Source of the DNA: an uncultured virus (IMG/VR IMGVR_UViG_3300032665_002303)
Lineage: Duplodnaviria > Heunggongvirae > Uroviricota > Caudoviricetes
DNA length: 20,000 nt
IMG/VR virus record: IMGVR_UViG_3300032665_002303
Direction: 5' to 3' (one strand)
Shown here piece after piece: positions 2,278 through 20,000 of this stretch. The translations under genes and the position numbers were made by a program. How positions within the stretch are numbered: the first letter of the stretch is position 1; every line of letters begins with the position of its first letter. The notes beneath the pieces are model-generated. The model ran no database searches. It worked only from the letters and a program-made list of their open reading frames with translations, and had not been told where the DNA came from.

Positions 2278-2282
2278 AGTGC

Positions 2283-2875: not shown

Positions 2876-3118
2876 ATGACAGTTACCGAAGATATTAAGA
2901 TAGAGACATTCTCCGATTCTCCAATAACTACTCCTGAGCAAAAAAAGGCGGCATTGCTTGAATATATAGATATTCAAACGGACAAGATTGACGCAATGGT
3001 GAGGGAATTAAAGGATACCGTAACAAAAGCATTGCTACACCCCGAAAAGGAAATAATTAAAGATTACTTCGCTGGATGGGAAGGGCAAAAGAATTACACT
3101 TATCACGTTAAGGATTAA
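2876..3118 (+). CDS. Hypothetical protein (80 aa)
   Basis: ORF track, CACAC leader. Confidence 0.7.
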   Translation: MTVTEDIKIETFSDSPITTPEQKKAALLEYIDIQTDKIDAMVRELKDTVTKALLHPEKEIIKDYFAGWEGQKNYTYHVKD

Positions 3119-3342
3119 TCGTTTACAACATCTGCCGCATCGATTAATAAATTCCATGATTTTCCGTCAATACTTCTCTCGAAAGGGATTCTAATTCTGC
3201 CTCCGGGCATTAATTTGCCATCCTCTCCAAATTCGGGAGCAGAAGAAACGGTTATGATGGCTGTTAAATCTGATGTGTGCTTTAGCTTAAGCCCTTGAAT
3301 ACCTTCAATTAGTAAGTCAATAGGTATTTTCATTTTTCTCAT
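3115..3342 (-). CDS. Hypothetical protein
   Basis: ORF track. Start placed at ATG 3342 (alternative 3333). Confidence 0.6.
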   Translation of the reverse strand: MRKMKIPIDLLIEGIQGLKLKHTSDLTAIITVSSAPEFGEDGKLMPGGRIRIPFERSIDGKSWNLLIDAADVVND

Positions 3343-3379
3343 AATATTTACGTTTAAGGTTAGCACTACGAATGTAAGT

Positions 3380-3412
3380 AATAGCTCCGAGCAATCGGGG
3401 CTATTTTATTTT
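3380..3412 (+). terminator. Rho-independent terminator-like hairpin
   Basis: AATAGCTCCGA-GCAA-TCGGGGCTATT followed by a T-rich tract. Confidence 0.6.
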
Positions 3413-3514
3413 GCATATATTTGCAATGCAAAACCAATAGAATAATGCAGGCACTCTGCCATGCAAAATAAAAAGATTAAAAATGAGTATCGCCCATATG
3501 AAGAATTGGCAAAC

Positions 3515-3934
3515 TTAGAAAAGCATTTTAGCAATATCCCCACTCAGACTTTTAAAATCAGGGCAGATAAAGGCTTGATAAGAATCAGCAGCACAAAGGA
3601 TGTCCGCAAACTTAGGCAATTCGGTATTTAGTGTTTTTATAGCCCTATCTATGGCGCTGTACGCTATTCTAACATTCAATTCCGTTCTTTGGGCAGATAG
3701 CGCCGAAAATATATTTTCAACCGCAAAGAACCCATATTTAGCATTGTGTATAATGAGTTCAAATTTAGGCTCTACAATAAAATATTCGGTTCCGTCAACC
3801 AAGGCTCTTCCATAATTCAGGAAATAGCTTCCAGCTATTTCTCCTGGCTTAAAGCTAGTTAATTCGACTTCATTTGGCAATCCATTTTTTACATTAATTT
3901 TGAGATGGTCTAACATGATATTTTGGTTTTGCAT
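3515..3934 (-). CDS. Hypothetical protein (~140 aa)
   Basis: ORF track. Start moved to ATG 3934 (alternative 3916) because the longer start overlaps the terminator. Confidence 0.7.
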   Translation of the reverse strand: MQNQNIMLDHLKINVKNGLPNEVELTSFKPGEIAGSYFLNYGRALVDGTEYFIVEPKFELIIHNAKYGFFAVENIFSALSAQRTELNVRIAYSAIDRAIKTLNTELPKFADILCAADSYQAFICPDFKSLSGDIAKMLF

Positions 3935-3948
3935 CCACAATATATAAA

Positions 3949-3981
3949 TAAAAAAGTAAAGCCCCACAATATTGTGGGGCT
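3949..3981 (-). terminator. Perfect 22 bp palindrome / terminator
   Basis: AGCCCCACAATATTGTGGGGCT (3960-3981), followed by a T-rich tract on the minus strand. Confidence 0.65.
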
Positions 3982-4057
3982 GCGACATTTAAATTGCAAA
4001 ACCAAAATGCAGCTATTTTAGGACACTAGCGCAAGCCCAATAGAGACTCCGTGTGTG

Positions 4058-4424
4058 GCGCCGGAGGCTCAAAAGAGCATTTTTTGTAACTATAAATAAG
4101 CGCATATGTTATTTAGGTCTTTTAGATTGATTTTAGAATTTTAGCGAATAGTTCTATTTAACATTGCGTCAAATTATAGTTCAAAAAATTCCATTGGAGG
4201 CCGCATAGCCTGTTGCAAATATAGTACAAATGTTGAAACTGCAAAATAAATTTGCCCGATGCAGGGCGCCGTAGTTGATGATTATTGATGAAGTAAAATC
4301 AAGGAACTGAAGCCCGGATTGGTGGGCCAACAAATTATACTTATTTTTGGATGATAGTAGCGATGTTGTCGAACGGAGCGTCGCCACTGAACCCTAATAG
4401 TAGTACCAAAAGCTAAGTACAAAA
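4058..4424 (+). repeat. ~366 bp direct repeat, copy 2
   Basis: Near-identical to 171-536. Ends immediately at the terL ATG. Confidence 0.95.
4371..4398 (+). repeat. Boundary site 3 (type A)
   Basis: GAACGGAGCG-TCGCCAC-TGAACCCTAAT, then AAAAGCTAAGTAC. Confidence 0.95.
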
Positions 4425-6731: not shown

Positions 6732-6764
6732 AAACAATTTTATTGAGCCAGCTATCTCTCTCCG

Positions 6765-6792
6765 ATGGAGCGTCCGTTGCGACGCTCCATTC
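6765..6792 (-). repeat. Boundary site 4 (type A, self-complementary)
   Basis: GAATGGAGCG-TCGCAAC-GGACGCTCCAT, then N8-GATAGCTGGCT. Confidence 0.9.
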
Positions 6793-6828
6793 ATCTTTCT
6801 GCCCCTGATGAAAATATTTTAAAATAAA

Positions 6829-7339: not shown

Positions 7340-7366
7340 CAACGGAGCGTCGCAACGATGCTAAAT
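7340..7366 (+). repeat. Boundary site 5 (type A)
   Basis: CAACGGAGCG-TCGCAA-CGATGCTAAAT. Confidence 0.95.
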
Positions 7367-7407
7367 AGTGGCAAAAAACCTGACAAACAAAACCTAAAAA
7401 TAGAGAA

Positions 7408-7893
7408 ATGACACCAATCAAGAAATACCCAAAGAACCACAAGGGCGGAGTGCCACTGGCAGAGTATAAAAACCTGATGAAGCACTATGATAATATGACT
7501 ACATATGCGGCCGTACAGGAGCAAGAGGCTAAAGATCAAAAAGCAAAACAGGAGCACCTTGTAAAAGAGCTGAAATCCAAGTGCGATCTGAATGTATCGT
7601 ACTTGAGCCAGCTACACAAGATAGAAATGGACCGAGCCGAGAACACTACAACCATAAAAACAGTAGGTGACGCAATAAACTACACCGTCCACTTCCTGGC
7701 TAACTTCAAAATACAGGACAAGGCAGAGATCATCAAGCAGATATCGGCTAACTTTCTAAAGCAAGAGCGCGAGCGCCTAGCTGCCATGAAAAATGAAGTG
7801 GGATTCAACGAGGAGATACTATCTCAGTATACAAGTTCTATGGAGAAGTTTTCAAGAGGAGATGTGTTCTTATCTCCGGAGAGTTTTAAATGA
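7408..7893 (+). CDS. Hypothetical coiled-coil protein (161 aa)
   Basis: ORF track. Confidence 0.8.
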   Translation: MTPIKKYPKNHKGGVPLAEYKNLMKHYDNMTTYAAVQEQEAKDQKAKQEHLVKELKSKCDLNVSYLSQLHKIEMDRAENTTTIKTVGDAINYTVHFLANFKIQDKAEIIKQISANFLKQERERLAAMKNEVGFNEEILSQYTSSMEKFSRGDVFLSPESFK

Positions 7894-7919
7894 CTTTTAA
7901 GCCAGCGGGCGTCGCTATG

Positions 7920-7946
7920 ATTAAACATCGTTGCGACGCTCCGTTC
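7920..7946 (-). repeat. Boundary site 6 (type A)
   Basis: GAACGGAGCG-TCGCAA-CGATGTTTAAT. Confidence 0.95.
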
Positions 7947-7986
7947 GACTTCATACTTTCAATTTCACACACAAATTAAAATAGGT

Positions 7987-8757
7987 ATGTGCAAAGAGCA
8001 TCCAATATTATTTTCTACACCAATGGTGGAGGCTATTATTGACGGAAGAAAAACAATGACGAGGCGCATAGTTAAGCCAATGAGGTCCCAGAGGTGGCTA
8101 TCGATGGATACGCTATTAAAATCGCCATCGGCCTATATGTGCATTATTGACGGAGATGATTGGGCGCAATTCAGGCACCCATTAGCCGGACAGTTTGCGT
8201 TCGGTGTTCAAAATGAGGAAGATAGCCCCTTAACCTGCATTAAACACCCTTACGGGAATATCGGGGATGTGTTATATGTTCGCGAAACATGGCAGCACAC
8301 GGATAGTCTTGGAGTAAATAGGGAGGATGAAAATTCGGGCTATATCTACAAGGCTAGTGAGAATGGTAGGGAGTGGGAATCCAGCGATGATAATTGGATA
8401 TGGAAGCCTTCTATTTTTCTGCCAAAAGAAGGATCGAGAATATGGATTCAGATATCCGATATAAAGATGGAGCGACTACAAGATATTTCGCAAGAAGATG
8501 CAAGGCTGGAGGGTATTTTACCGGCGCCACATAGGCCGTCAATGCCGTCTTGCCCATTACATAAAGATAAATCAATGCATAGAGATTGCTTCGTGTGTGC
8601 ATTTAAAACGCTATGGAATAAAATAAATGGAAAGTCTGGGAATGGGTGGCTTATAAATCCGTGGGTGTGGGCAATATCTTACAATGTGTTATCTACAACA
8701 GGCAGGCCAAATAGTATTCCTGTTTTTGAACGGAGCGTCGCCACTGAAGCTAAATAG
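7987..8757 (+). CDS. ASCH/PUA-like phage protein
   Basis: Motifs PILFSTPMVEAIIDGRKTMTRR, GDVLYVRETW, WKPSIFLP, ERLQDISQEDARLEG and NPWVW. Confidence 0.85.
   Translation: MCKEHPILFSTPMVEAIIDGRKTMTRRIVKPMRSQRWLSMDTLLKSPSAYMCIIDGDDWAQFRHPLAGQFAFGVQNEEDSPLTCIKHPYGNIGDVLYVRETWQHTDSLGVNREDENSGYIYKASENGREWESSDDNWIWKPSIFLPKEGSRIWIQISDIKMERLQDISQEDARLEGILPAPHRPSMPSCPLHKDKSMHRDCFVCAFKTLWNKINGKSGNGWLINPWVWAISYNVLSTTGRPNSIPVFERSVATEAK
8728..8755 (+). repeat. Boundary site 7 (type A), encodes the C-terminus of the upstream ORF
   Basis: GAACGGAGCG-TCGCCAC-TGAAGCTAAAT, then N8-AAAAGCTAAGT. Confidence 0.95.
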
Positions 8758-8784
8758 TAAGGAAAAAGCTAAGTACCCAAAATT

Positions 8785-9096
8785 ATGCCCAGACTACCTA
8801 CCATAAGAACCCTAAGAGAATGTATTACCTGGTATACTAACAAGTATTATGAGCTAGTAACAACAGATATAAGATCAAGAGAAAGAGCACACATAGAACT
8901 TATAGAAGAAGTTAACGAAAGATACCTGCTTGTATTAAAAAAATGTATACCAGAACAATATGAAGAAGGTAAAGATGCTTTTATAAGGAACATAGACTTT
9001 CTTACACAAGTATTTACTAAAAAAAGGATGAGAGAAGAAAAGGAAATGGCATTACAGGAGTTCAAAAATAAAATTCAGGGAGCCAGCGGCCGGTAA
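8785..9096 (+). CDS. Hypothetical protein (103 aa)
   Basis: ORF track. Confidence 0.75.
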   Translation: MPRLPTIRTLRECITWYTNKYYELVTTDIRSRERAHIELIEEVNERYLLVLKKCIPEQYEEGKDAFIRNIDFLTQVFTKKRMREEKEMALQEFKNKIQGASGR

Positions 9097-9099
9097 TAA

Positions 9100-9126
9100 A
9101 TTAAGCCAAGTTGCGACGCTCCGTTC
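9100..9126 (-). repeat. Boundary site 8 (type A)
   Basis: GAACGGAGCG-TCGCAA-CTTGGCTTAAT, then N8-GGCCGCTGGCT. Confidence 0.9.
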
Positions 9127-9150
9127 ATCTTCATACTTTCAATTAAAAAC

Positions 9151-9474
9151 ATGTCAACCATAGAAATAAATAATGAATTACTTGGAAATCTGTCATTCGA
9201 TAAGTTTGATGCCCTTTGCAATGCCCTAAAATGCACCGCCCTCGGCAAGACCAAAAAAAATACGTGGATAATAGAGGCAGAGGATCCAATTAGTTTATTT
9301 AATCTTGGCGGACATCTTGAAATGGAAATTGAATTTATTTCAACTACCAGTACAGATGATGGAAGAAAGGAGGTTGTCAAAGTTAAAAACATGAATACGA
9401 AACAATTCAACGTGTTTGTGGGCGAAGTAATCATGGCGCAAAGCGATGTTGCTAAACCAGAAAACGGTAATTAA
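9151..9474 (+). CDS. Hypothetical protein (107 aa)
   Basis: ORF track. Confidence 0.75.
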   Translation: MSTIEINNELLGNLSFDKFDALCNALKCTALGKTKKNTWIIEAEDPISLFNLGGHLEMEIEFISTTSTDDGRKEVVKVKNMNTKQFNVFVGEVIMAQSDVAKPENGN

Positions 9475-9496
9475 TAATTATTTTAAAATACAGACA

Positions 9497-9739
9497 ATGA
9501 TTGACCAATTGAAGGTAGCACAAGTGATATTGTGCGAAAAAATATCAAGGGGAGACGGAAAGGATACGCCCATTCGCAAAATTATGGAGGTTGTTGACTT
9601 GGATGGAAAATTCATAGCTGAGTATGATTTTTTAAGTTTTACTATAGAGGAGGTGATGGAATTATTACCGAGTATAGATGTTGATACAAGGGCCTCTATA
9701 TATAGATCGCTATTAAAAGCCCGGGACTGCGCAAGGTGA
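9497..9739 (+). CDS. Hypothetical phage protein
   Basis: ORF track. Start placed at ATG 9497 (MIDQLK). Contains RGDGKDTPIR...DLDGKFIAEYD. Confidence 0.7.
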   Translation: MIDQLKVAQVILCEKISRGDGKDTPIRKIMEVVDLDGKFIAEYDFLSFTIEEVMELLPSIDVDTRASIYRSLLKARDCAR

Positions 9740-9746
9740 TGTCGCT

Positions 9747-9774
9747 GAACGGAGCGTCGCCACTGAAGCCAAAT
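9747..9774 (+). repeat. Boundary site 9 (type A)
   Basis: GAACGGAGCG-TCGCCAC-TGAAGCCAAAT. Confidence 0.95.
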
Positions 9775-9806
9775 AGATAAACTAACTTCTGCTTAAAAAT
9801 ATTTTT

Positions 9807-10445
9807 ATGAACACAAACTTAGAATTCCGTATCTGGGACAAACAAGAAAAGAAATGGGCAGCCCAATCTCACTATACAGAGGCGATTCTGCTATCTGCAG
9901 CAGGGGATATTGTAACCGTAGATAACAATGGCAGAATGTTATGCAGCCAACCAGGATTCAGGTACGAAGTAAGTCAATACACCGGCTTCAAGGACAAGGA
10001 AGGAGTAAAAGCATTTACCGGGGATAAGGTGGAGTATTACAATAAGGAGGGTGGTGAAATAGTTTTTTCAGATCACCATGGCGCATATATGATAGATGGA
10101 AAAGGAAGGGGTATGCGCGGTATGTCAAATGGTTCGTGGAAGATAGTAGGAAGCAAATGGGAAGAGAAGCCGGAGCCCGCACCAAATTCTCCAGCCCACC
10201 GCAAAACCAAAGAGGAGATAGCGGATGATATTCTTAGGTATCTAAGAGGAAGCGCCAATCCAAGGGTGGTAGATTTATTGTCCAAAAAGCGACCACCACT
10301 CTGCCTGCGTCCCCGCCACATAGTAGAAACACAAAGAATGGGAGAGATAAACGTTGCTATATCCCGTTACCTGGTAGAAGGAAAAGGAATACCAAAAGAG
10401 TGGATAGAGGAATTGCAGGAGCTTAATGATAAAAGGGGGATGTAG
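9807..10445 (+). CDS. YopX-family protein with additional C-terminal domain
   Basis: YopX signature LEFRIWDK...SQYTGFKDKEGVKAFTGD...KIVGS, then a Pro-rich linker and KRPPLCLRP...IPKEWIEE domain. Confidence 0.8.
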   Translation: MNTNLEFRIWDKQEKKWAAQSHYTEAILLSAAGDIVTVDNNGRMLCSQPGFRYEVSQYTGFKDKEGVKAFTGDKVEYYNKEGGEIVFSDHHGAYMIDGKGRGMRGMSNGSWKIVGSKWEEKPEPAPNSPAHRKTKEEIADDILRYLRGSANPRVVDLLSKKRPPLCLRPRHIVETQRMGEINVAISRYLVEGKGIPKEWIEELQELNDKRGM

Positions 10446-10462
10446 CCAGCGGCGGTGCCGTG

Positions 10463-10490
10463 ATTAGGCAGCCGTTGCGACGCTCCGTTC
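10463..10490 (-). repeat. Boundary site 10 (type A)
   Basis: GAACGGAGCG-TCGCAAC-GGCTGCCTAAT, then N8-CGCCGCTGGCT. Confidence 0.9.
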
Positions 10491-10520
10491 GACTGAATTT
10501 AACAATTAAACAACCATATT

Positions 10521-11003
10521 ATGCAGGGACTTACACCAAGCCAATTATCAGAGGTATCAGAATTCGTACAGAAACACCATAAATTTGGATATGTCAGAGA
10601 GGATGATAGATACGCAGGGCATGAAGGGTACTGTATAAAGTATATTGATGCTTGCTATGACTCTCGGCAGGCTGATTTTTGGGCTATAACATTCAGGGGT
10701 TGTGGTAGAATTAACTTCTCCACGAACTCTCAATATCCAAAACCATATACTACATTATTTGATTGGATAATGGGTTTTTTAAAATACGAATGGCTGCAAG
10801 AGGGGAAAAGATATGATCACATGTCAGAAAAGTCGGAAGCCCTGCTGGTTAATAGTTTCCCTAATGGAGAGATAGAAACAGAATGGAGCGATATTGATAT
10901 GATGAATGCTTATTGTGCAGATTTGGAAGACGGAGCAACTTCAGATGATATGGCAGATGCTTGTAAGTGGGTCATTCAATATAGAGAAAAACAGAATAAA
11001 TAA
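10521..11003 (+). CDS. Hypothetical protein (160 aa)
   Basis: ORF track. Confidence 0.8.
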   Translation: MQGLTPSQLSEVSEFVQKHHKFGYVREDDRYAGHEGYCIKYIDACYDSRQADFWAITFRGCGRINFSTNSQYPKPYTTLFDWIMGFLKYEWLQEGKRYDHMSEKSEALLVNSFPNGEIETEWSDIDMMNAYCADLEDGATSDDMADACKWVIQYREKQNK

Positions 11004-11029
11004 CCGACCGTACAAGAATTAAACAGTTT

Positions 11030-11341
11030 ATGGGATTAAATATAAGTATATATCGGGTCAATATTCAATTAGACGATGAGGGGTATTTTGTATCAGAAGA
11101 GAGGGTAAATGAACAAGTTGGCTGGGATAGCCTCAGATATGCGGGGGATACTGATTTTTCCAAAGCGAATTTATGTCTTCAAATAAAAGACAGAGAGAGT
11201 GTATATTACCGTCCTGAAAATTTCGAATCAACGTTTGCTTGGATAAACGGAATTGTTCCTACTGGAAATAAAAACAGATGGATTGAAATTCTAAATAAAA
11301 TGAAAGGACAACCAGACTTATATTTCTTCTTTGGATGGTGA
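11030..11341 (+). CDS. Hypothetical phage protein (103 aa)
   Basis: ORF track. Flanked by a 15 bp direct repeat. Confidence 0.8.
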   Translation: MGLNISIYRVNIQLDDEGYFVSEERVNEQVGWDSLRYAGDTDFSKANLCLQIKDRESVYYRPENFESTFAWINGIVPTGNKNRWIEILNKMKGQPDLYFFFGW

Positions 11342-11358
11342 GTAGCAAACCGACCGTA

Positions 11359-11385
11359 CAAGTGTGCGACGCAACGCAGCCGATA
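11359..11385 (+). repeat. Boundary site 11 (type B)
   Basis: CAAGTGTGCG-ACGCAA-CGCAGCCGATA. Confidence 0.9.
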
Positions 11386-11471
11386 GTAGCAACAAATCTG
11401 ACAACCAAAAATTTACATACAATGCAAACAGAAATACCTTTTAAGATCGAAGGAAATACAGCCCCATTTAC

Positions 11472-11624
11472 ATGCAGGAGCAGAAGAAGGCGCTGTGGAA
11501 GCAATTTGTGAATAGATTTGAGGTGCTAAAAGAGAAAGCGCAGAGTACATATCCAAACGGAAAGCCATGGGAGGACATTCTGGCTGAAATGTTGCAAAAC
11601 GAATATAATCTGACGGTAAAGTAA
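11472..11624 (+). CDS. Small hypothetical protein (50 aa, MQEQKKALWKQF...), possibly frameshifted from ATG 11422
   Basis: Manual translation. Last gene of the rightward block, ending before the terminator. Confidence 0.55.
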   Translation: MQEQKKALWKQFVNRFEVLKEKAQSTYPNGKPWEDILAEMLQNEYNLTVK

Positions 11625-11647
11625 ATATCCTTTCCTCTTGAAACAAG

Positions 11648-11677
11648 AACGCCCGCTATATGCGGGCGTTTACTTTT
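11648..11677 (+). terminator. Terminator at the convergence of the two gene blocks
   Basis: AACGCCCGC-TATAT-GCGGGCGTT followed by TACTTTT. Confidence 0.75.
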
Positions 11678-11709
11678 GTATGGAATAGCTAAATTATTAA
11701 TAGAACCCA

Positions 11710-11736
11710 GAACGGAGCGTCGCAACGATGCCTAAT
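11710..11736 (+). repeat. Boundary site 12 (type A)
   Basis: GAACGGAGCG-TCGCAA-CGATGCCTAAT. Contains the stop codon of ORF 11732-11938. Confidence 0.95.
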
Positions 11737-11938
11737 CAGTGGCCTCCGGCCGGCCCAACGGTTCATCAAAACTAACAGTAATAATACACCCACTATCAGT
11801 AAGAGAGAATATTATCTTACGCAACTCCTTTCTTGTTTCAAAGCGGCTGGTCTTGATAACACTCTCTAGTTTGGCGGCAGAAGGGTTTACTATTGTTATA
11901 TGCCCTCCATTGTATAAATACTTTTTGTTTACAGGCAT
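11732..11938 (-). CDS. Hypothetical protein (68 aa)
   Basis: ORF track. Exactly bracketed by sites 12 and 13. Confidence 0.7.
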   Translation of the reverse strand: MPVNKKYLYNGGHITIVNPSAAKLESVIKTSRFETRKELRKIIFSLTDSGCIITVSFDEPLGRPEATD

Positions 11939-11973
11939 AAAAAGGTTTTTGGGTACTTAGCCATAGGAATACA

Positions 11974-12001
11974 ATTTGGCACCTGTGGCGACGCTCCGTT
12001 C
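11974..12001 (-). repeat. Boundary site 13 (type A)
   Basis: GAACGGAGCG-TCGCCAC-AGGTGCCAAAT, then N8-TATGGCTAAGT. Confidence 0.95.
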
Positions 12002-12013
12002 ATCGCAGGATGG

Positions 12014-12406
12014 CTATTTGGCCTTGTTTATGTAAGCGTTATATTCTTCTTCGGTAGCCGGCATAATAGTGACATCCCCTATAACCGATATGGTTTCATA
12101 CACGGGATGCACCCTCTCCCTGGTTCCCGAATCATCAATCACTATTTCGTATTCTGGCATTTCGTCTGGTGCACGATCTTCCCACCACTCCATGATGCGG
12201 AACAAATGCGGGTACTGCCTGATCTTATCTGCATACTGCCATTCTCCTACTGGAGCGTCTTTGTCTTTAGCTACACATACTCCATAAATAGGATGTTCAA
12301 ATTGAGTAAGTATATCACCAGGTAAGAAGGGGCTGCCGGGGTAATGGTGTATGCCTGTTCCTGTGCAAATAAATCGGGGTGTGAGTAGTTCTTCTTTGGA
12401 TAACAT
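12014..12406 (-). CDS. Hypothetical phage protein (130 aa)
   Basis: ORF track. Motifs YPGSPF..GDIL, YPHLFR..EWWE.R..DEMPEY and PATEEEY. Confidence 0.8.
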   Translation of the reverse strand: MLSKEELLTPRFICTGTGIHHYPGSPFLPGDILTQFEHPIYGVCVAKDKDAPVGEWQYADKIRQYPHLFRIMEWWEDRAPDEMPEYEIVIDDSGTRERVHPVYETISVIGDVTIMPATEEEYNAYINKAK

Positions 12407-12438
12407 AAAATTTTTGTTTGTCAGTGTTAAGAATAAGA

Positions 12439-12465
12439 ATGAAGCATCGTTGCGACGCTCCGTTG
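12439..12465 (-). repeat. Boundary site 14 (type A)
   Basis: CAACGGAGCG-TCGCAA-CGATGCTTCAT. Flanks shared with site 5. Confidence 0.95.
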
Positions 12466-12481
12466 ATCGTTCGGTTATTAA

Positions 12482-12613
12482 TTAAGCCTTACTGGGTAGT
12501 ATATTGTATTGTTTGGTGTTTGGCGCTGTATTTTTTAATGGCTCATAGGCAGGAATCCACGCATGTCGTAGCCACTTCCTTATTAAGAAGTATTTAATTG
12601 ATCTCTTTGTCAT
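12482..12613 (-). CDS. Small hypothetical protein (43 aa, MTKRSIKYFLIRKW...)
   Basis: Manual translation. ATGA overlap with the upstream ORF. Confidence 0.45.
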   Translation of the reverse strand: MTKRSIKYFLIRKWLRHAWIPAYEPLKNTAPNTKQYNILPSKA

Positions 12614-12816
12614 TCCCAATCAAGTTTTTCAAAGGTTATCGGATGAGTATCTTTACTTTGGTATATCCACATCATTTCCGCCGGCATGTGCGGGCTGGTC
12701 TGGGGTAATACAATGGCGCCACATACAACCGGATTATGGTTATTTACGTTGTCCATTTTTCGATTAAATGAATTGGAGTCAAATGGGTAGGTATTGAATC
12801 CTATTTTGTTGTCCAT
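12610..12816 (-). CDS. Hypothetical protein (68 aa)
   Basis: ORF track. Confidence 0.6.
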   Translation of the reverse strand: MDNKIGFNTYPFDSNSFNRKMDNVNNHNPVVCGAIVLPQTSPHMPAEMMWIYQSKDTHPITFEKLDWE

Positions 12817-12847
12817 TTTGTAAAAAGTTAAATAGTGAACTGAATTT

Positions 12848-12876
12848 GAACGGTGCCATCGCCACTGCAGCCCTAT
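12848..12876 (+). repeat. Boundary site 15 (variant A)
   Basis: GAACGGTGCCA-TCGCCAC-TGCAGCCCTAT. Contains the stop codon of ORF 12873. Confidence 0.75.
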
Positions 12877-13346
12877 CGAAGCTGGCAGCCTGGACCATAA
12901 AGTTTGTCCCGGTGATTACGTAGAGCAAACCACAAAGAAGAGGTGTATTCTACTTGTGTCATTCTTTCTGTGTAATGATCGTAAAGAGTTTTAGAAAATG
13001 ATTTTGGTTCCAGCACTATGGAAGACAAGGCGGCAGTAGTTGCGTCGCACTCTTGTACGCTTAGTTCTTCTATGAGCTGTTCTACTGTTATAGAGGAGAG
13101 GGAATCATCGTAAGGAGCGAATAGCGTGGCCGATAGCCAATATGTGCCGTCGGATATAATGTATGTATTATAGCAGTGCCCGCATTTGGATGTTGGATGC
13201 TTGGTTGTTATTCCAATGTTTATTTCTGTGATGCCACATCTGCACGGAGCAAGGCGAATGCTATGCAATAGAAATATCTGACCCTTTTTAATTAAGCCGG
13301 CAGAATGGCTCTTTATGCAGATTACCTTCTTTCCTACTTCAAACAT
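12873..13346 (-). CDS. Hypothetical Cys-motif phage protein, reads through site 16
   Basis: ORF track. VGKKVICIK, CRCG and CGHC motifs. Confidence 0.75.
   Translation of the reverse strand: MFEVGKKVICIKSHSAGLIKKGQIFLLHSIRLAPCRCGITEINIGITTKHPTSKCGHCYNTYIISDGTYWLSATLFAPYDDSLSSITVEQLIEELSVQECDATTAALSSIVLEPKSFSKTLYDHYTERMTQVEYTSSLWFALRNHRDKLYGPGCQLR
13028..13055 (-). repeat. Boundary site 16 (type B, intragenic)
   Basis: CAAGAGTGCG-ACGCAAC-TACTGCCGCCT. Confidence 0.85.
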
Positions 13347-13389
13347 AGTATGTGTGTTTTAAAATTATGAACTTAGCTGTTTTCTATAA

Positions 13390-13416
13390 ATTAGGCATCG
13401 TTGCCACGCTCGCTTC
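13390..13416 (-). repeat. Boundary site 17 (variant)
   Basis: GAAGCGAGCG-TGGCAA-CGATGCCTAAT, then N8-AACAGCTAAGT. Confidence 0.85.
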
Positions 13417-13433
13417 GCTCATCGTATTTTATT

Positions 13434-13883
13434 TTAACAATCTGGACATTCAATTTCCAGTATCATTTTAAGCATTTTATTTCTTTCTGCAGTTGATCCC
13501 TGAAAGGCATATCGAGGGTTGAGTTTATATACGCCTCTCTGTGTGCTGTAGATAAGTTTTTTATCAGTAAGGGCTCCCAAGGCATTAGCTACGGTGCCCG
13601 GGCTTAACTTAGTGTCCTTGCCTATTATATTGCGTATGCTGGCTGAAATACCTATGTCTGTACCTACCTGATACTTTTCTAAAAGGTGGCAATAAACACG
13701 CACTTCCGGCCCGTTTAGTTTCTTGAATACGCCAATAAGGGAGGCAAATATTATATAGAATTCCTCCTTGCTTTTAGCTAGGTATTTATATTTCTGGACG
13801 CTATCTTCAAGCACCTCTCCAGTAATCCTGTCGACGATGTGAATATTTTTCACTAAGCCTGTTTTTAAGAATGATGTATTCAT
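13434..13883 (-). CDS. RepL-like winged-helix DNA-binding protein
   Basis: VDRITGEV, EEFYIIF, HTH segment LSPGTVANALGAL, and GVYKLNPRYAFQG typical of RepL-like proteins. Confidence 0.7.
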   Translation of the reverse strand: MNTSFLKTGLVKNIHIVDRITGEVLEDSVQKYKYLAKSKEEFYIIFASLIGVFKKLNGPEVRVYCHLLEKYQVGTDIGISASIRNIIGKDTKLSPGTVANALGALTDKKLIYSTQRGVYKLNPRYAFQGSTAERNKMLKMILEIECPDC

Positions 13884-13896
13884 AGCTTTGATTTAG

Positions 13897-14005
13897 TTCA
13901 CAAAACTAATGAATAATTTTAAATCAAACAAGCATTTGTTCACTATTTTTATGAATTAAATACTTGTTCATTAACTATAGCATGTTGTATTCACTGTATA
14001 ATGAA
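13897..14005. promoter_or_regulatory. Three inverted-repeat boxes TTCAC-N6/7-ATGAA, the first overlapping a promoter -7 box
   Basis: Boxes at 13897-13913, 13939-13955 and 13990-14005. TAGTTTTG -7 box at 13908-13901 (-). Confidence 0.55.
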
Positions 14006-14119
14006 TAAGATATTGGTATTTGGTGAACAAAAAACAACTTAAAGTGTTGATTATTAGTTATTTGATTACAAAAGCCCTCTATCTATCATATAATAACATG
14101 TGGTTGAAACTATGCAGCC

Positions 14120-14146
14120 GAAGTGTGCGACGCAACGATGCTAAAT
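14120..14146 (+). repeat. Boundary site 18 (type B)
   Basis: GAAGTGTGCG-ACGCAA-CGATGCTAAAT. Confidence 0.95.
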
Positions 14147-14152
14147 CTGGCG

Positions 14153-14494
14153 CTATTTGCCGGCTGCATCAGTTTTTGAAAAGTGATCCAGTAGGTTCGT
14201 CATTTCATCAAAGGAGTCTTGAAGGTTATCGTATTCTTCGTTAGATACGCCCTTTATTTGCAAGTTACCCATAACGCTTAGTGCATTACCTACTATATTC
14301 GGGATAGAAAGGAGACATTGTACAGTACCTTTCCATACTAATCCTCCTGGAAGGGATATAGATATAAGGTCAAGCTCTCTGTCTGTTCCGTTTTCTTCCT
14401 GAGTGGTTACTTCTATTTTGTAACCTTCTCCGGATATGCTGGCTTGTGGGGAGAATTCAAAGTCGTTATTGGTTTCTATTTGTATGGTTCTCAT
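14153..14494 (-). CDS. Hypothetical protein (113 aa)
   Basis: ORF track. Bracketed by sites 18 and 19. Confidence 0.75.
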   Translation of the reverse strand: MRTIQIETNNDFEFSPQASISGEGYKIEVTTQEENGTDRELDLISISLPGGLVWKGTVQCLLSIPNIVGNALSVMGNLQIKGVSNEEYDNLQDSFDEMTNLLDHFSKTDAAGK

Positions 14495-14502
14495 TGTTTT
14501 AT

Positions 14503-14530
14503 TTTTGGTTGCTGAGGCGACGCTCCGTTC
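14503..14530 (-). repeat. Boundary site 19 (type A, degenerate right arm)
   Basis: GAACGGAGCG-TCGCCTC-AGCAACCAAAA. Confidence 0.85.
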
Positions 14531-14542
14531 GTCTGCGGAGTT

Positions 14543-14788
14543 CTATTTAGCGATCAGGCCAATTTTGTATTTCCCCTCGTATTCCTTTATTATTGCGATA
14601 AATAATCGCTCCATGTAGGAGGTATCAATAAATGATATTGAGATGGATATATCCCCGTTCACTATAATTGGGTTTACTGATCGTATGGCGGCAAGTAATA
14701 TTTCCTTTGTGAATCCAAGGCCATTTATTTTATCGTCTACAAATTCCTCTTGCTGAGAGGGCCGGAGATCGTTAAAGTATTTTGTCAT
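14543..14788 (-). CDS. Hypothetical protein (81 aa)
   Basis: ORF track. Confidence 0.7.
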   Translation of the reverse strand: MTKYFNDLRPSQQEEFVDDKINGLGFTKEILLAAIRSVNPIIVNGDISISISFIDTSYMERLFIAIIKEYEGKYKIGLIAK

Positions 14789-14822
14789 TTTGAGTGAAAA
14801 GTTTAATTATTAACTGAAAGAT

Positions 14823-14849
14823 GAATGGAGCGTCGCAACGAAGTTTAAT
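14823..14849 (+). repeat. Boundary site 20 (type A)
   Basis: GAATGGAGCG-TCGCAA-CGAAGTTTAAT. Confidence 0.95.
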
Positions 14850-14958
14850 CTTTATTCCGGTTCCTGTAACCGATAAAAGCACAACATAAAAGGAAGAGGA
14901 GCAACAATATAATATCCTCAATAAAGTGATGTTGTTCTAAAAAGGAGACAATAAGCAT
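14845..14958 (-). CDS. Small single-TM peptide (37 aa, MLIVSFLEQHHFIEDIILLLLFLLCCAFIGYRNRNKD)
   Basis: Manual translation. The stop codon lies within site 20. Confidence 0.45.
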   Translation of the reverse strand: MLIVSFLEQHHFIEDIILLLLFLLCCAFIGYRNRNKD

Positions 14959-14969
14959 AAAGAGTACAT

Positions 14970-15143
14970 TTAGTTAAAAACAATATTATAATCAATAATA
15001 GTTTTGATCATTACCTCTTTAGTCTGCTTAGGTAATTCCTGGTAGATACGACCTGTTTTAGATTTTACTACCCTTCCACCGGGAGTAAGTATATCAAAAG
15101 TAGAAAAGGTTTTACGAAGAGAGTTATATAATTGCCTGGACAT
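14970..15143 (-). CDS. Small hypothetical protein (57 aa, MSRQLYNSLRKTF...)
   Basis: Manual translation. Leader CACACATACT-ATG is identical to that of ORF 13346. Confidence 0.6.
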   Translation of the reverse strand: MSRQLYNSLRKTFSTFDILTPGGRVVKSKTGRIYQELPKQTKEVMIKTIIDYNIVFN

Positions 15144-15191
15144 AGTATGTGTGATTTTGCGTTAAGATTTTGTTTCAGAATTCAGAATATA

Positions 15192-15218
15192 ATTTAGCTT
15201 CGTTGCGTCGCACTCTTC
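15192..15218 (-). repeat. Boundary site 21 (type B)
   Basis: GAAGAGTGCG-ACGCAA-CGAAGCTAAAT. Confidence 0.95.
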
Positions 15219-15244
15219 GGCTGCATTTTCGCCATTGCGCTTCT

Positions 15245-15523
15245 TTACAGATCACCATTTTTAAGGGCCATTTGGGCTGTTGCTGCATCGCTCATTAAAT
15301 GCTCATATTCTCCGGCAGGGCAATATTGAGAATTAAAGTTGGACTGCGCATATTGAAACGCCCATTTTGTAGGGCTGCCCATTATTGGGGCGGCAAAGTT
15401 TGAGCAAAAACACTCCCGCGCATCATTGTAATTTTCCGCGGTTACTTTTACGTAATGATCTTTCATTGGCTGTCCATCTTCTGTAAAGTGTGCCTGGCCG
15501 AAAGTGAAATAGTAATTTTCCAT
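15245..15523 (-). CDS. Hypothetical phage protein (MENYYFTFGQAH...KWAFQY)
   Basis: ORF track. True start placed at ATG 15523, because the longer start lies in site 22. Confidence 0.8.
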   Translation of the reverse strand: MENYYFTFGQAHFTEDGQPMKDHYVKVTAENYNDARECFCSNFAAPIMGSPTKWAFQYAQSNFNSQYCPAGEYEHLMSDAATAQMALKNGDL

Positions 15524-15566
15524 TTTGTGTGATTTTATGATTAAAGTTAAATTATATTCTCCCCTT

Positions 15567-15594
15567 GAACGGAGCGTCGCCACCGCAGCTCAAT
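15567..15594 (+). repeat. Boundary site 22 (type A)
   Basis: GAACGGAGCG-TCGCCAC-CGCAGCTCAAT. Confidence 0.95.
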
Positions 15595-15818
15595 TATTCT
15601 CCTTCGCTGGCCCCAAAAACTTCTTTTTCGGTCTTTATTCCTTCCTCAACTACGGCCTCTAAAAAGCTATCTATAAAGGCTACTATACCGTTAAAGTGGC
15701 TTGTTTCTTCTTCTGTTAAGCATTCATCTCCTTCTTTCTCTATTAAGTCAAGGAGTGTATCTCTCTGCTTACGTAGCAAATTATAATCAGTTTTATTGGC
15801 AATTTCTAAGAGTAGCAT
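15594..15818 (-). CDS. Hypothetical protein (74 aa)
   Basis: ORF track. Confidence 0.75.
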   Translation of the reverse strand: MLLLEIANKTDYNLLRKQRDTLLDLIEKEGDECLTEEETSHFNGIVAFIDSFLEAVVEEGIKTEKEVFGASEGE

Positions 15819-15821
15819 ACA

Positions 15822-16052
15822 TTAAAAGTTTAAGGGATCAACAATAAAAGGACGTGTAGCATAGTTGGTATTATCTGCCGGGGAGGTAGCAACGCCTAAT
15901 ACTTTAGCGTGTGCCTGGGTTTCATCATATACCCTTATTCTTTCTGCTTCTACTGCTTCAAGGGGGTTTCTGCTGCGTATTATACGCTCTAACATGGATA
16001 ACTGTATATCCAGTTGTATTGTTTTTTGGTAAAGTTTTTCTGCTGGTGTCAT
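15822..16052 (-). CDS. Hypothetical protein (76 aa)
   Basis: ORF track. Confidence 0.75.
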   Translation of the reverse strand: MTPAEKLYQKTIQLDIQLSMLERIIRSRNPLEAVEAERIRVYDETQAHAKVLGVATSPADNTNYATRPFIVDPLNF

Positions 16053-16088
16053 TGTGTGTAAATTTTTTGGTTCAGAATGTTGAATATA

Positions 16089-16116
16089 ATTTAGCTGCGG
16101 TTGCGTCGCACTCTTG
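16089..16116 (-). repeat. Boundary site 23 (type B)
   Basis: CAAGAGTGCG-ACGCAAC-CGCAGCTAAAT. Confidence 0.95.
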
Positions 16117-16129
16117 TGCGTTCATATCT

Positions 16130-16627
16130 TTACCGGGCTATTCCCGGCAGGCGTTCTTCAAATGTTTTCTTATCCTGCTCGGCATCCTGTTTATTGTCGT
16201 ATCGGTATTCTTCCCCGTCTATTTTTAGTAGATACTGATCGAGCATGTAACGCTCTATTTCTATATCCGGCTCATATCCCACATTGGAGTATAGCCCGCT
16301 GATCCAGTCGCTGCTCAAATCGGAATGTAAAAATTCCTTTACATTTTCATTGTCCATATTTAGTATGTGCTGAAAGGTGTCATCTGCCGCAAACCCAACC
16401 AAATCAAGTGCCTGCTCAAAACCTTCCAGGTATTGTATAAATTCAGTTAATTTTAAAGGCTGGCATATTGCGGTAATATCTTCCCCCTGTGCCGTTTCAA
16501 GAAAGAACCTGTTTTTAACGCTGTTGATCTGCACGGTTATAGGCTGGTCAGATTGGAGGCCGGATAAGCGGGCGTTAATGTTTTTAATTAAAAGTTCCGG
16601 CATTTCGGTATTGAATTGATTTTCCAT
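16130..16627 (-). CDS. Hypothetical protein (165 aa)
   Basis: ORF track. Confidence 0.8.
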   Translation of the reverse strand: MENQFNTEMPELLIKNINARLSGLQSDQPITVQINSVKNRFFLETAQGEDITAICQPLKLTEFIQYLEGFEQALDLVGFAADDTFQHILNMDNENVKEFLHSDLSSDWISGLYSNVGYEPDIEIERYMLDQYLLKIDGEEYRYDNKQDAEQDKKTFEERLPGIAR

Positions 16628-16653
16628 TATTTTGTGTGTTTTGGTGTGAATTT

Positions 16654-17184
16654 TTATATGGCGGTCAGTTCTTGCAGTTTGTTCCAGTCGCTTTGTGCGT
16701 CGTGTTCATTATCATAGGTATATTCAAATAATTCCTCATTACCCATGCTGCGGAAGATAAGCTCCCATTGTTCCGGCTCTATTTGTGTTCTCCCGATATT
16801 ATCCAGGATATACGCCTCATTTTCGTTTACCTCTGCATTTCCCCAATCAAATTGTAATGATGGATGTTTGAAATCCGCCGAGGGAGTATTAAATACGGGT
16901 AATTTTTTTTCTTGTGATTTTACTACTCCGTCCATATATCCGTAAACCTGATAAATGTTTGCGTATCCGTAAATTATGGAATTAGTGCCCCTTTCGCCAT
17001 TTTGAGCAATCGCCCAATATTTACCCGCGCGTGGATCACTTTGCGTTAAATATATAGTGCCTGGCGTAGCGCAGATATATTCACGGTCTCCGTTTGGAGT
17101 ATCTAAAAAATAGTTGCGCTCACTTTTTATATTCAATGCAAGGCAATACTCTACAAACTTTGATTCTATAATTGACTTTTTCAT
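16654..17184 (-). CDS. Hypothetical protein (~176 aa)
   Basis: ORF track. Start placed at ATG 17184 (MKKSII), because the longer start spans site 24. Confidence 0.8.
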   Translation of the reverse strand: MKKSIIESKFVEYCLALNIKSERNYFLDTPNGDREYICATPGTIYLTQSDPRAGKYWAIAQNGERGTNSIIYGYANIYQVYGYMDGVVKSQEKKLPVFNTPSADFKHPSLQFDWGNAEVNENEAYILDNIGRTQIEPEQWELIFRSMGNEELFEYTYDNEHDAQSDWNKLQELTAI

Positions 17185-17220
17185 TTTGTGTACGTGTTTT
17201 GAGGTTGAAAATATACAGTT

Positions 17221-17247
17221 GAAGTGTGCGACGCAACGAAGTTTAAT
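17221..17247 (+). repeat. Boundary site 24 (type B)
   Basis: GAAGTGTGCG-ACGCAA-CGAAGTTTAAT, then N7-TGCAGCCGGCT. Confidence 0.95.
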
Positions 17248-17330
17248 TATAGGCTGCAGCCGGCTTAAAAAGAGTAAAAAGATAGGGTTCAAACGTTCCG
17301 GGTAACTACTCCGGAATACTTACAAACATC

Positions 17331-18011
17331 TTAGTTAATATTTTTCGCTACAGCGTACACATCGAATGTTTTGCCGCTACTTACACTTGACCATTCATAA
17401 CCTATGGACTTGAATATTGCAGGATAGCATGAAACACCCACGCCACCTTCAAAATATGGCTTAACGCCATAACCTGATCCGTAGCCAAACAAATTTTGAT
17501 TTTCTTTGATAATATTACTATCCTTTACAGTGTACAGCGCATTAAGCAGCTCGGAGCATTTATTTAGTGCTTGAGCTATAGCCGTAGATTCTTTGTCAAA
17601 TCCATAGCCAGTAATGCGGCCCGATTTATAGTTATCGCAGGTATTATCAGTAAAGCACACCCTAACAGATGCAGCCGGACAATTACCCCATGTGCGGCTC
17701 TTTGCCCATTCAACAGATATAGAAATACTAGAAATTACTTTTACGGCATCCGACACAGCCAAAACTTCAGACTTTACTTTTGATATTTTACCTTCCGTCT
17801 CTTTATTGATCCTTTTAGATAAGTAAGCGACCAGAGCGGATAATTCCCATTTTTTATTTAATGAGGCTGCGGTCATCATGCTTTTAAAACGCCAGTTAGA
17901 TAGTATTTCTTCGGTAGTTTTAATTCCCTGAAGCTCTGCTATTGTTTCGGTTGCAGATGTGGTAATTTTGCTAATCTCTGTAGCTGCGATGTTGAAGAAT
18001 TGATTTTTCAT
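17331..18011 (-). CDS. Hypothetical phage protein (226 aa)
   Basis: ORF track. Motifs WAKSRTWG, GYGFDKESTAIAQALN and PYFEGGVGVSC. Confidence 0.85.
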   Translation of the reverse strand: MKNQFFNIAATEISKITTSATETIAELQGIKTTEEILSNWRFKSMMTAASLNKKWELSALVAYLSKRINKETEGKISKVKSEVLAVSDAVKVISSISISVEWAKSRTWGNCPAASVRVCFTDNTCDNYKSGRITGYGFDKESTAIAQALNKCSELLNALYTVKDSNIIKENQNLFGYGSGYGVKPYFEGGVGVSCYPAIFKSIGYEWSSVSSGKTFDVYAVAKNIN

Positions 18012-18049
18012 TGTTTGTAAGTTTAGATTGTTAGTTATTGATTAGGATG

Positions 18050-18082
18050 TAAAGATATTGCGTATATGCGTACTGTGCAAGT
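18050..18082 (-). promoter_or_regulatory. Promoter with TGCGTATATGCG box (copy 1)
   Basis: -7-like TATCTTTA (18057-18050), box at 18059-18070. Confidence 0.6.
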
Positions 18083-18122
18083 AAATTTAAATGTATTTGT
18101 TTTTATAATGTGTTACTTGTTT

Positions 18123-18308
18123 TTACTCTTTGGCTGGTGCCGGTTCGTCGATGGAAAGAAGGTATGCTTTGCCAACTTTGCGGACAGATGTAAGGCCGGG
18201 TATTTTGTGCCATTGTGATTTATCAGCGGCTATTTCTTGTATGTACCTTTTTTTTCCAGGACTGCTGGGTCTGTTGAGGTTTATGTATTCTGTTATTGTC
18301 ATTTCCAT
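18123..18308 (-). CDS. Small putative DNA-binding protein (61 aa)
   Basis: ORF track. TITEY...RKVGKAYLL weakly resembles excisionase/MerR-type wing motifs. Confidence 0.55.
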   Translation of the reverse strand: MEMTITEYINLNRPSSPGKKRYIQEIAADKSQWHKIPGLTSVRKVGKAYLLSIDEPAPAKE

Positions 18309-18349
18309 TTCTCCGGTAGTTTATTTTTGGTTCAGAAGTTCAGTTATAA

Positions 18350-18377
18350 ATTAGGGGTTCGTTGCGTCGCACTCTTG
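18350..18377 (-). repeat. Boundary site 25 (type B)
   Basis: CAAGAGTGCG-ACGCAAC-GAACCCCTAAT. Confidence 0.95.
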
Positions 18378-18399
18378 TGCGGTTGGTAATTCTATTCGG

Positions 18400-18600
18400 C
18401 TATTCATAAATTATCTTACCGTCGTACTCTGCGGGGATTACATAGGCATCATAAATATTAACTAATGAGTCGGCAATCTCTCCGGCCTTACCTTTTGGAG
18501 CTAAGAGCGTTTCGGTTATTTCGTGAACGATTGCGCATGGTGTTCCATCGGTCATTTCATCAAATGTGATGTTGCCGAATATTATTAATGTCTTGTTCAT
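18400..18600 (-). CDS. Hypothetical protein (66 aa)
   Basis: ORF track. Confidence 0.7.
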   Translation of the reverse strand: MNKTLIIFGNITFDEMTDGTPCAIVHEITETLLAPKGKAGEIADSLVNIYDAYVIPAEYDGKIIYE

Positions 18601-18634
18601 AATTATAAATTGAGATGTTGAAAATATTAATTAA

Positions 18635-18880
18635 TCAAGGCTTTAAATGAAGCGCTAAAATAACGTTTAAATCTTCTGTATTTCCGCTCCATGTGCGACC
18701 ATCCGAAAAGGATATTTGTATGAGCGGTTGCTCGCGCTCTTTATATGTGTCGCCGCTTCAGGTGTATGCATCCATATGGATATAAATTCCGTTTGCGGTC
18801 ATTAATACAGATCCTTTCTGCTCGTTTTTAAATTGACCGCCCTTTACGCCCTGAGTAGTTACTTTTATTGACTTTGACAT
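18635..18880 (-). pseudogene. 81-codon gene with an internal in-frame TGA at 18758-18760
   Basis: Manual translation: MSKSIKVTTQGVKGGQFKNEQKGSVLMTANGIYIHMDAYT*SGDTYKEREQPLIQISFSDGRTWSGNTEDLNVILALHLKP. Confidence 0.65.
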
Positions 18881-18918
18881 GATTTAATATAATTTTAAGT
18901 GGTTGAAAATATGTTGTT

Positions 18919-18945
18919 GAAGTGTGCGACGCAACGAAGTTTAAT
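18919..18945 (+). repeat. Boundary site 26 (type B)
   Basis: GAAGTGTGCG-ACGCAA-CGAAGTTTAAT, then N7-TGCAGCTAAGT. Confidence 0.95.
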
Positions 18946-18974
18946 AGTAAGTTGCAGCTAAGTAAAAGAAGATT

Positions 18975-19797: not shown

Positions 19798-19888
19798 CAA
19801 ATGGAAATAGAAATGTTTTCATAATACATATTGCACTAATGGCATGCCGTTTATTATATACCCCCCCCCAATAGAATTACCCCCAGCC

Positions 19889-19916
19889 GAAGAGTGCGAC
19901 GCAACAGACGATGATA
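19889..19916 (+). repeat. Boundary site 27 (type B)
   Basis: GAAGAGTGCG-ACGCAAC-AGACGATGATA. Confidence 0.9.
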
Positions 19917-20000
19917 GTAGGAGCAGCAGCTGGCAACCAAAGATAAAAACAAAGGGAGAAAGAAAGAAAGGATAAGAGATACAACGGCAGGAGGAAGGAA

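Follow-up and report, generated by a model that had tools for sequence, protein, structure and literature searches.

The 20,000-nucleotide window analyzed here, a stretch of DNA from an uncultured virus of the Caudoviricetes (IMG/VR record IMGVR_UViG_3300032665_002303), carries 26 copies of a short sequence whose parts are reassorted from copy to copy. Each of these sites is the middle part of a dispersed intergenic repeat of the Chitinophagaceae, ∼70 bp long, which has colonized this phage lineage. The copies are block-wise mosaics, with a sharp break in linkage at positions 14–16, a second at positions 1–4, and swaps of blocks at fixed loci. We favor an explanation in which this is a repeat resembling the repetitive extragenic palindromic (REP) elements, recombining between copies and shuffling phage genes in the way that PeSLs do in T4-type phages, and on balance we think that it is probably correct. 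Throughout, position 1 is the first base of the 27-mer that makes up a site, and each copy is named for the window coordinate of that base.

Mosaic sites in the window

The initial annotation of this DNA distinguished two left-arm patterns, type A and type B. The two patterns recover 15 sites of type A and 10 of type B, as stated, and a 26th site, at 13390 on the minus strand, has a third core haplotype. That description of the sites is confirmed and lies far from chance. In a matrix scan, the 26 sites scored 23.6–39.9 bits and nothing else in the window reached 8 bits; 10 simulated sequences together gave three hits of at least 8 bits, the best of them at 20.2. Type B sites are displaced rightward along the window, as had been noticed (Mann–Whitney p = 0.009).

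Permutation within the window linked positions 4, 5, 7, and 11 to type (p = 0.0002 each), completely at 5, 7, and 11 and nearly so at 4. Position 15 was weakly linked (p = 0.023), and both position 1 and positions 18–27 were unlinked (p = 0.10–0.94 for the latter). The proposed comparison of left with right arms found no significant correlation (Mantel r = 0.04, p = 0.22). Identical right arms had been reported on both types, and they are indeed there: six pairs of copies are the same over positions 17–26, five of them on differing left haplotypes, against 0.08 such pairs in 20,000 column shuffles (p = 5e-5).

Two elements of the initial annotation require revision. Both of the outer-flank motifs that it described as following the arms are present, but they are located at positions −18 to −4 and are the repeat's own left part rather than flanks traveling with an arm. 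An anatomy of two arms around a spacer does not hold either, as 3.5 of 11 positions agree between the two arms and the true unit is ∼70 bp long. The copies are listed below, with approximate extents given by the 27-mer plus 22 bases on either side.

462..532, plus strand: repeat copy, type A; 3′ end directed at the putative small terminase
1239..1309, minus strand: repeat copy, type B; stop codon of gene 570–1232 directly adjoins its 3′ end
4349..4419, plus strand: repeat copy, type A; terminase start directly beside its 3′ end
6744..6814, minus strand: repeat copy, type A; after the terminase stop; this junction is without a copy in L270 and with one in L276
7318..7388, plus strand: repeat copy, type A; right arm is that of 14120 (type B)
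7898..7968, minus strand: repeat copy, type A
8706..8776, plus strand: repeat copy, type A; the end of gene 7987–8757 reads through the copy
9078..9148, minus strand: repeat copy, type A; gene 8785–9096 ends within it
9725..9795, plus strand: repeat copy, type A
10442..10512, minus strand: repeat copy, type A
11337..11407, plus strand: repeat copy, type B; top match to the host-derived model (41.8 bits)
11688..11758, plus strand: repeat copy, type A
11953..12023, minus strand: repeat copy, type A
12417..12487, minus strand: repeat copy, type A
12828..12881, plus strand: possible decayed copy, not established (5.2 bits, whereas shuffles reach 6.1)
13007..13077, minus strand: repeat copy, type B
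13368..13438, minus strand: repeat copy, third core haplotype; right arm is that of 11710
14098..14168, plus strand: repeat copy, type B; right arm is that of 7340 (type A)
14482..14552, minus strand: repeat copy, type A, with decayed right part
14801..14871, plus strand: repeat copy, type A; right arm is that of 17221 and 18919 (type B)
15170..15240, minus strand: repeat copy, type B
15545..15615, plus strand: repeat copy, type A
16068..16138, minus strand: repeat copy, type B; right arm is that of 484 (type A)
17199..17269, plus strand: repeat copy, type B
18329..18399, minus strand: repeat copy, type B
18897..18967, plus strand: repeat copy, type B
19867..19937, plus strand: repeat copy, type B

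Window segments 400–430 and 1305–1350 also resemble the right half of the repeat; they have no intact core and were missed by the profile.

A repeat family of the Chitinophagaceae

The core of the site is found in other phage contigs too, with conserved sequence on both sides. A longer pattern matched at least 130 stretches of bacterial genomes; among the 80 titled matches listed, nearly all were Chitinophagaceae, Chitinophagales, or unclassified Bacteroidota, and two under other names may be misbinned. Across genomes the number of copies ranges from 0 to 1846, with 1846 in Limnovirga soli (genome G003), 1573 in G001, and 91, 66, and 26 in three others, where a reversed control gave 0. Within the family of L. 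soli, 65 of 101 genomes match and 48 hold at least five copies (reversed-pattern control, two at most), and phylum-wide at least seven copies were found in 9 of 301 genomes. The repeat is largely intergenic in L. soli, in which 114 of 144 copies lie outside crudely called open reading frames (ORFs).

From its 5′ end, the repeat consists of a GCY box, AATAG, 13 variable bases, CAA or GAA, and a 10-nt core block with few alleles. There follow CAA, a 7- to 8-nt word, and a second AATAG at a distance of 42–43 bases from the first; another 13 variable bases then lead to a GCY-GG box, and the end is A-rich. Flanks are nearly copy-specific and cores are invariant. Types A and B are alleles found throughout the family, as is a third common type, and single host genomes contain them side by side. 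Type A accounts for 0 of 153 copies in L. soli and is dominant in the phage clade of the window (all 10 copies in L269, 3 of 4 in L276).

Folding found no hairpin on either strand (mean z of −0.2 to −0.4, with z below −2 in 2–4 of the 26 copies). The sole co-varying complementary pair, positions 9 and 13, lies in a 7-bp micro-dyad centered on position 11. The −7 promoter motif of Bacteroidota occurs in 1 of the 26 window copies. Rfam returned 0 matches to the repeat at E up to 1, and two single copies (81–86 bases) found no match in annotated phage and plasmid collections, a search of low power with queries so short. A reading of the internal direct repeats as target-site duplications was dropped because likeness within copies exceeds that between copies by only 0.3–0.7 of 19 bases, which is not significant in the window. 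With respect to the criteria for miniature inverted-repeat transposable elements, the ends of the repeat vary and the flanks of empty sites are merely 70–88% identical. Searches of literature listings found no published description of the family.

Two local observations concern the behavior of individual variants. Near position 14386 of L331, a 20-nt perfect palindrome splits the core of a copy at its center, and the orthologous copies are without it; the repeat core is itself a target for another small element. At the loci of G001 (L116, L141, L205, L240, and others), one variant is dominant, often with the same 7-nt tandem repeats before it, which suggests the recent spread of a composite unit.

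Linkage collapses at an invariant triplet

The initial annotation proposed that recombination would leave a sharp linkage break within the shared CGC[A/C]A. We ran this check on samples from three host genomes (153 copies in 400 kb of G003, 78 in 400 kb of G394, and 100 in 280 kb of G404), and in each of them linkage breaks down at the invariant CAA, between positions 13 and 17 and inside CGC[A/C]A. Mean normalized mutual information across a boundary peaks at positions 9–10 (0.43, 0.35, and 0.49 in G003, G394, and G404) and is 0.04, 0.03, and 0.05 at positions 13–16. Individual pairs of positions behave alike: positions 4 and 11 are linked at 0.97–0.99 over 7 bases and positions 9 and 13 at 0.83–0.93, and positions 13 and 17 at 0.00–0.06, with position 17 linked to 18 (0.25–0.33). 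Among 193 copies from viruses and the window, position 15 links leftward and position 17 links to nothing, which puts the break between 15 and 17. The core haplotype in G003 is tied to the upstream word (p = 2e-11) and independent of the right-hand word (p = 0.27), and right words assort freely across four core haplotypes.

A second break lies at positions 1–4, where mutual information is 0.05 in G394 and G404 and 0.18 in G003. Thus, the units exchanged are the 10-nt core block and the right-hand word, not two arms. Of the crossover that had been placed within the spacer, copy-to-copy recombination with a break in CGC[A/C]A is supported, but a single crossover point is not.

The sharpness of the first break bears on a second explanation, in which strand exchange at the CAA in positions 14–16, whatever the core allele, is the work of a dedicated site-specific enzyme that binds the repeat (a host or phage recombinase or nickase), with the two AATAG-containing direct repeats as accessory binding sites. 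Because general recombination alone does not predict a break that sharp, such an enzyme has to be given some weight, although we consider it unlikely. The 13–17 break is sharper than any decay with distance inside either block and is seen in three genomes; position 17 goes with the right word and position 15 with the left block, two CAA triplets bracket the core, and direct pairs of copies <1 kb apart are nearly absent from the hosts. The second break, at 0.05 in G394 and G404, argues the other way, as do the existence of hybrid cores (described below), the lack of arm symmetry, and the difficulty of keeping >1500 live sites stable in one genome. Copies that share a downstream flank only are also hard to reconcile with it. 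In 12 such pairs, which recount about eight loci, identity is 47–64% up to position 3, 91% at positions 4–11, and 78–94% beyond, compared with 68% at positions 4–11 and 45–47% elsewhere in random pairs. The 91% identity at 4–11 places many crossovers to the left of the core, not at CAA.

Searches for the enzyme itself yielded no candidate. Clustering of the 599 proteins that neighbor copies gave orthologous neighbors and no gene recurring beside copies, which counts against the dedicated enzyme, and no recombinase was recognized among the 34 ORFs of the 20-kb window, which is part of the phage genome. Tyrosine integrases of 418–432 aa occur in three of five virus records; two terminase relatives among those five, with records 64–70% complete, have no tyrosine integrase. 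A Y1 transposase is an unlikely mobilizer of the repeat. Its gene is present in 77 of the 101 genomes of the L. soli family, including many that are copy-free, and does not track the repeat across genomes; among the best 30 of ∼250 matching loci, 0 are flanked by an inverted copy pair and 3 have one copy nearby. If it were true that a dedicated enzyme cuts at CAA, this would be a new recombination system. In its broadest form the proposal makes the repeat the substrate of an undescribed Chitinophagaceae recombination system, acting at a fixed CAA between unlike sites at up to ∼1800 positions, with no hairpin or symmetric arms, and shuffling phage gene cassettes with a site at almost every gene boundary; we regard this as doubtful.

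Exchange at orthologous copies

Comparison of related phage contigs provided 24 distinct pairs of orthologous copies, of which 15 are identical, 5 differ by scattered changes, and 4 differ by clustered changes. The clustered changes are switches between alleles that are common elsewhere in the repeat family. In one pair, with flanks 99% and 100% identical, the copies differ only at positions 5, 7, and 9, and the result is a hybrid core that changes over between positions 9 and 13. In another, most of positions 17–25 has been replaced. Divergence in orthologous pairs is 5.8% at positions 17–26, 2.2% in the flanks, and 1.6% in the core.

Phages L007, L011, and L095 have in common a downstream gene and the right half of its copy, joined to upstream genes that are unrelated in all three and to two types of core. 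One junction further on, L011 and L095 hold different genes plus a copy, and L007 is empty there. Broader tallies of flank sharing are not used as statistics: the first counts (both flanks shared in 8 pairs, the upstream one alone in 6, the downstream one alone in 17) included chance matches and recounted loci, and the 16 upstream-only pairs of a later set are mostly paralogues within G001.

These loci also address a third explanation, in which resident copies never recombine. The mosaic would instead be made when the repeat is copied, by template switching or error-prone synthesis, or by proteins fixing the cores while the flanks mutate toward a small vocabulary, and copies would mark gene boundaries merely by inserting there. 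Several observations fit such a history. Single copies stand at junctions that are empty in relatives, with length differences of 57–87 bp (17 candidate alignments of empty sites, several of them chance coding matches); a 2485-aa gene of L269 contains three copies in frame (1579, 2588, and 4231); near-unique flanks accompany invariant cores; and the junction test described below is borderline within groups. Copying does not account, however, for multi-base switches to known alleles at one locus between near-identical flanks (4 of 24 pairs), or for orthologous right halves attached to different left halves and genes. We consider this explanation improbable.

Gene junctions and orientation of neighboring copies

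In 28 contigs, gene junctions are broken in 41 of 47 cases with a copy versus 227 of 370 without one (pooled p = 3e-4). The direction of this association between copies and breakage is real, its strength modest.

The orientation of neighboring copies alternates along the window at 20 of 25 steps (p = 0.004). In three hosts, direct orientation was found in 1 of 67 neighbor pairs <1 kb apart, and 47 of 48 pairs <300 bp apart are head to head. Deletion between direct copies would explain this alternation.

Alternating orientation is likewise what a fourth explanation predicts, that the sites are Xer-type dif/pdif sites of 11+6+11 bp bounding gene modules, and the best right arms match the XerD site at 8 of 11 bases (PMC13141974, Table 1). 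Out of 11 bases, however, the mean match is 4.1–4.8 to XerD and 1.9 to XerC (same table), left arms ending in AA number 0 of 26 and right arms starting with TT 0–1 of 26, and host copies carry other right words and number up to 1846. Moreover, exchange is seen between differing “spacers,” whereas pdif sites need identical or near-identical ones (PMC13141974). The Xer explanation is largely refuted, and we give it almost no credence.

A proposed model of block exchange

The explanation that we favor, recombination between copies of a REP-like repeat, can be set out as follows. Copies would exchange short blocks by recombination or gene conversion and so give rise to mosaics. Tract ends would concentrate in the invariant boxes flanking the core block, most sharply in the CAA at 14–16. 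When a crossover takes place between copies in different phage genomes, the gene downstream of one copy would be joined to the gene upstream of the other, and the repeat would thus serve as portable homology for gene shuffling, as PeSLs do in T4; the association of copies with broken junctions points this way. Crossover between close direct copies would delete the intervening gene and leave alternating neighbors. Finally, the repeat is probably spread by a host protein that holds its core.

A number of observations weigh against this model. Most orthologous pairs (15 of 24) are identical. The junction test within groups gave 31 of 33 versus 135 of 171 (p = 0.050), 8 of 12 versus 61 of 166 (p = 0.062), and 2 of 2 versus 31 of 33; per comparison it gave p = 0.17 and 0.26, and junctions are not independent. 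Copies may merely gather in regions that were already variable. Among 21 neighbors <1 kb apart in the window there are 5 direct pairs, and no inverted gene between inverted copies was seen in the window. Alternation may also stem from the geometry of insertion, if copies settle with the 3′ end next to a gene; in G003, the 3′ end faces a stop codon in 70 copies, of which 47 sit at most 40 bp from it. Linkage across the break is retained, up to 0.45, in G001, where one variant is dominant, and core and right word are still associated in G394 (p = 0.024) and when the viral copies are pooled (p = 9e-4). Lastly, ordinary homologous exchange alone leaves unexplained the contrast between positions 4 and 11, which stay linked (0.97–0.99), and positions 13 and 17, which do not, and selection on whole core alleles must be added to it.

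The system may be useful in several respects. First, thousands of natural copies with few discrete alleles allow exchange points to be mapped to within a few bases by sequence alone. Second, the repeat bears on how REP-like elements spread and on why their cores stay invariant. Finally, it ties a host chromosomal repeat to phage mosaicism, since copies are found at the gene-exchange points of several unrelated phage groups and even divide a terminase pair.

The terminase region and other features of the window

The window is phage DNA: one gene matches a family of terminase large subunits, and the remainder are mostly small genes without a family. The features of the terminase region are listed below.

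171..470, plus strand: 300-bp non-coding segment, copy 1, ending inside repeat 484; 97% identical to 4058–4357
570..1232, plus strand: 220-aa gene without Pfam or PHROG match, taken as the small terminase from its position alone
1233..4424: 3.2-kb stretch between the two terminase genes, with copies 1261 and 4371 at its ends, their 3′ ends pointing outwards
4058..4357, plus strand: 300-bp non-coding segment, copy 2, ending inside repeat 4371
4425..6731, plus strand: terminase large subunit, 768 aa (phrog_6681, E = 1.6e-36)

In all four relatives that cover this stretch, the homologue of gene 570–1232 is adjacent to or within 400 bp of the large terminase gene. It overlaps the terminase start in L024, L269, and L271 and lies <400 bp from the terminase in L270. 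The 300-bp duplicate sits before both terminase genes and was collapsed in run X1 to a separate contig of higher depth. The simplest history of the split would be duplication followed by crossover between copies. Between the two genes, 1580–3988 is free of repeat copies and carries tiny ORFs in several convergent pairs; 1439–1473 repeats a 35-nt motif from the duplicated segment, and an 18-nt motif is common to 1516 and 2073.

Copies are unevenly distributed in the clade. L024 has none in the 91 kb of its record, L270 is without the post-terminase copy, and L269 has ten. Therefore, the repeat has been gained or lost within the clade.

The window sequence occurs in metagenome runs from lakes and other freshwater, and contigs from X1 and X9, two runs that may have yielded it, span it with 0 mismatches; no RNA run is listed among the sequencing runs that carry it. 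Contigs from these two runs break at copies 7920, 8728, and 9747, which suggests near-identical copies elsewhere in this phage. Joints between contigs in X1, X9, X18, and X19 were considered as rearranged forms and set aside, as they arise from contigs that match several copies; because contigs drop rare variants, this result does not bear on inversions or circles.

Three further features accompany the copies or lie among them. A RepL-like helix-turn-helix gene (PF05732) at 13434–13883 is followed by a long AT-rich gap up to copy 14120. The start codon past copy 11359 is out of frame with a 50-aa ORF at 11472–11624 (region 11422–11625); a relative of this ORF is found in L010. Upstream of leftward genes lie two copies of an 80-nt repeat (73% identity; 18030–18109 and 19746–19825), which is unrelated to the repeat family.

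Comparison with known systems

The attC sites of integrons stand one to a gene boundary, are inserted together with their gene, and cross over near an AAC triplet. The present repeat is similar in providing a site per gene boundary, in being inserted as a unit of gene plus site, and in the placing of its putative crossover near an AAC triplet. Unlike attC, it has no long imperfect hairpin on either strand and occurs in both orientations, no integron integrase was seen, and the AAC triplet reads CAAG in most G003 copies.

The pdif modules of Acinetobacter plasmids are comparable in that directional sites alternate around gene modules and modules are exchanged (PMC13141974, according to which pdif recombination requires identical or near-identical spacers; for dif in Bacteroidetes the comparison drew on PMC3091885). 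By contrast, the repeat has neither XerC/XerD arms nor a 28-bp dyad, and it is exchanged between unlike cores.

The likeness to REP, BIME, and REPIN elements is broader. As described in PMC2817692 and PMC3733652, these too are short, intergenic, restricted to particular lineages, and present in hundreds to thousands of copies, with close pairs opposed and composite or hybrid forms. The repeat differs in having no hairpin and no GT(A/G)G head with palindrome of the kind that those sources describe. It is also dense in phages, is ∼70 bp long, and combines an invariant center with variable flanks, and no Y1 transposase gene of the RAYT kind was found inside an inverted copy pair at the best 30 of ∼250 loci.

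The PeSLs of the T4-type phages RB49 and phi1 offer the parallel that underlies the explanation we favor. PeSLs are cassettes of promoter plus stem-loop set along the direction of transcription (PMC2839356), whereas the repeat is found in both orientations and has no stem-loop; it is, in addition, a host chromosomal family. In both cases, however, repeated intergenic units of ∼70–100 bp occupy regions of small phage genes and are chimeric after recombination. As reported in that source, recombination between PeSLs gains or loses a gene plus one chimeric unit, and excised mini-circles were demonstrated. Copies of the present repeat likewise sit at points of gene gain, loss, and replacement in related phages, an association that is borderline within groups.

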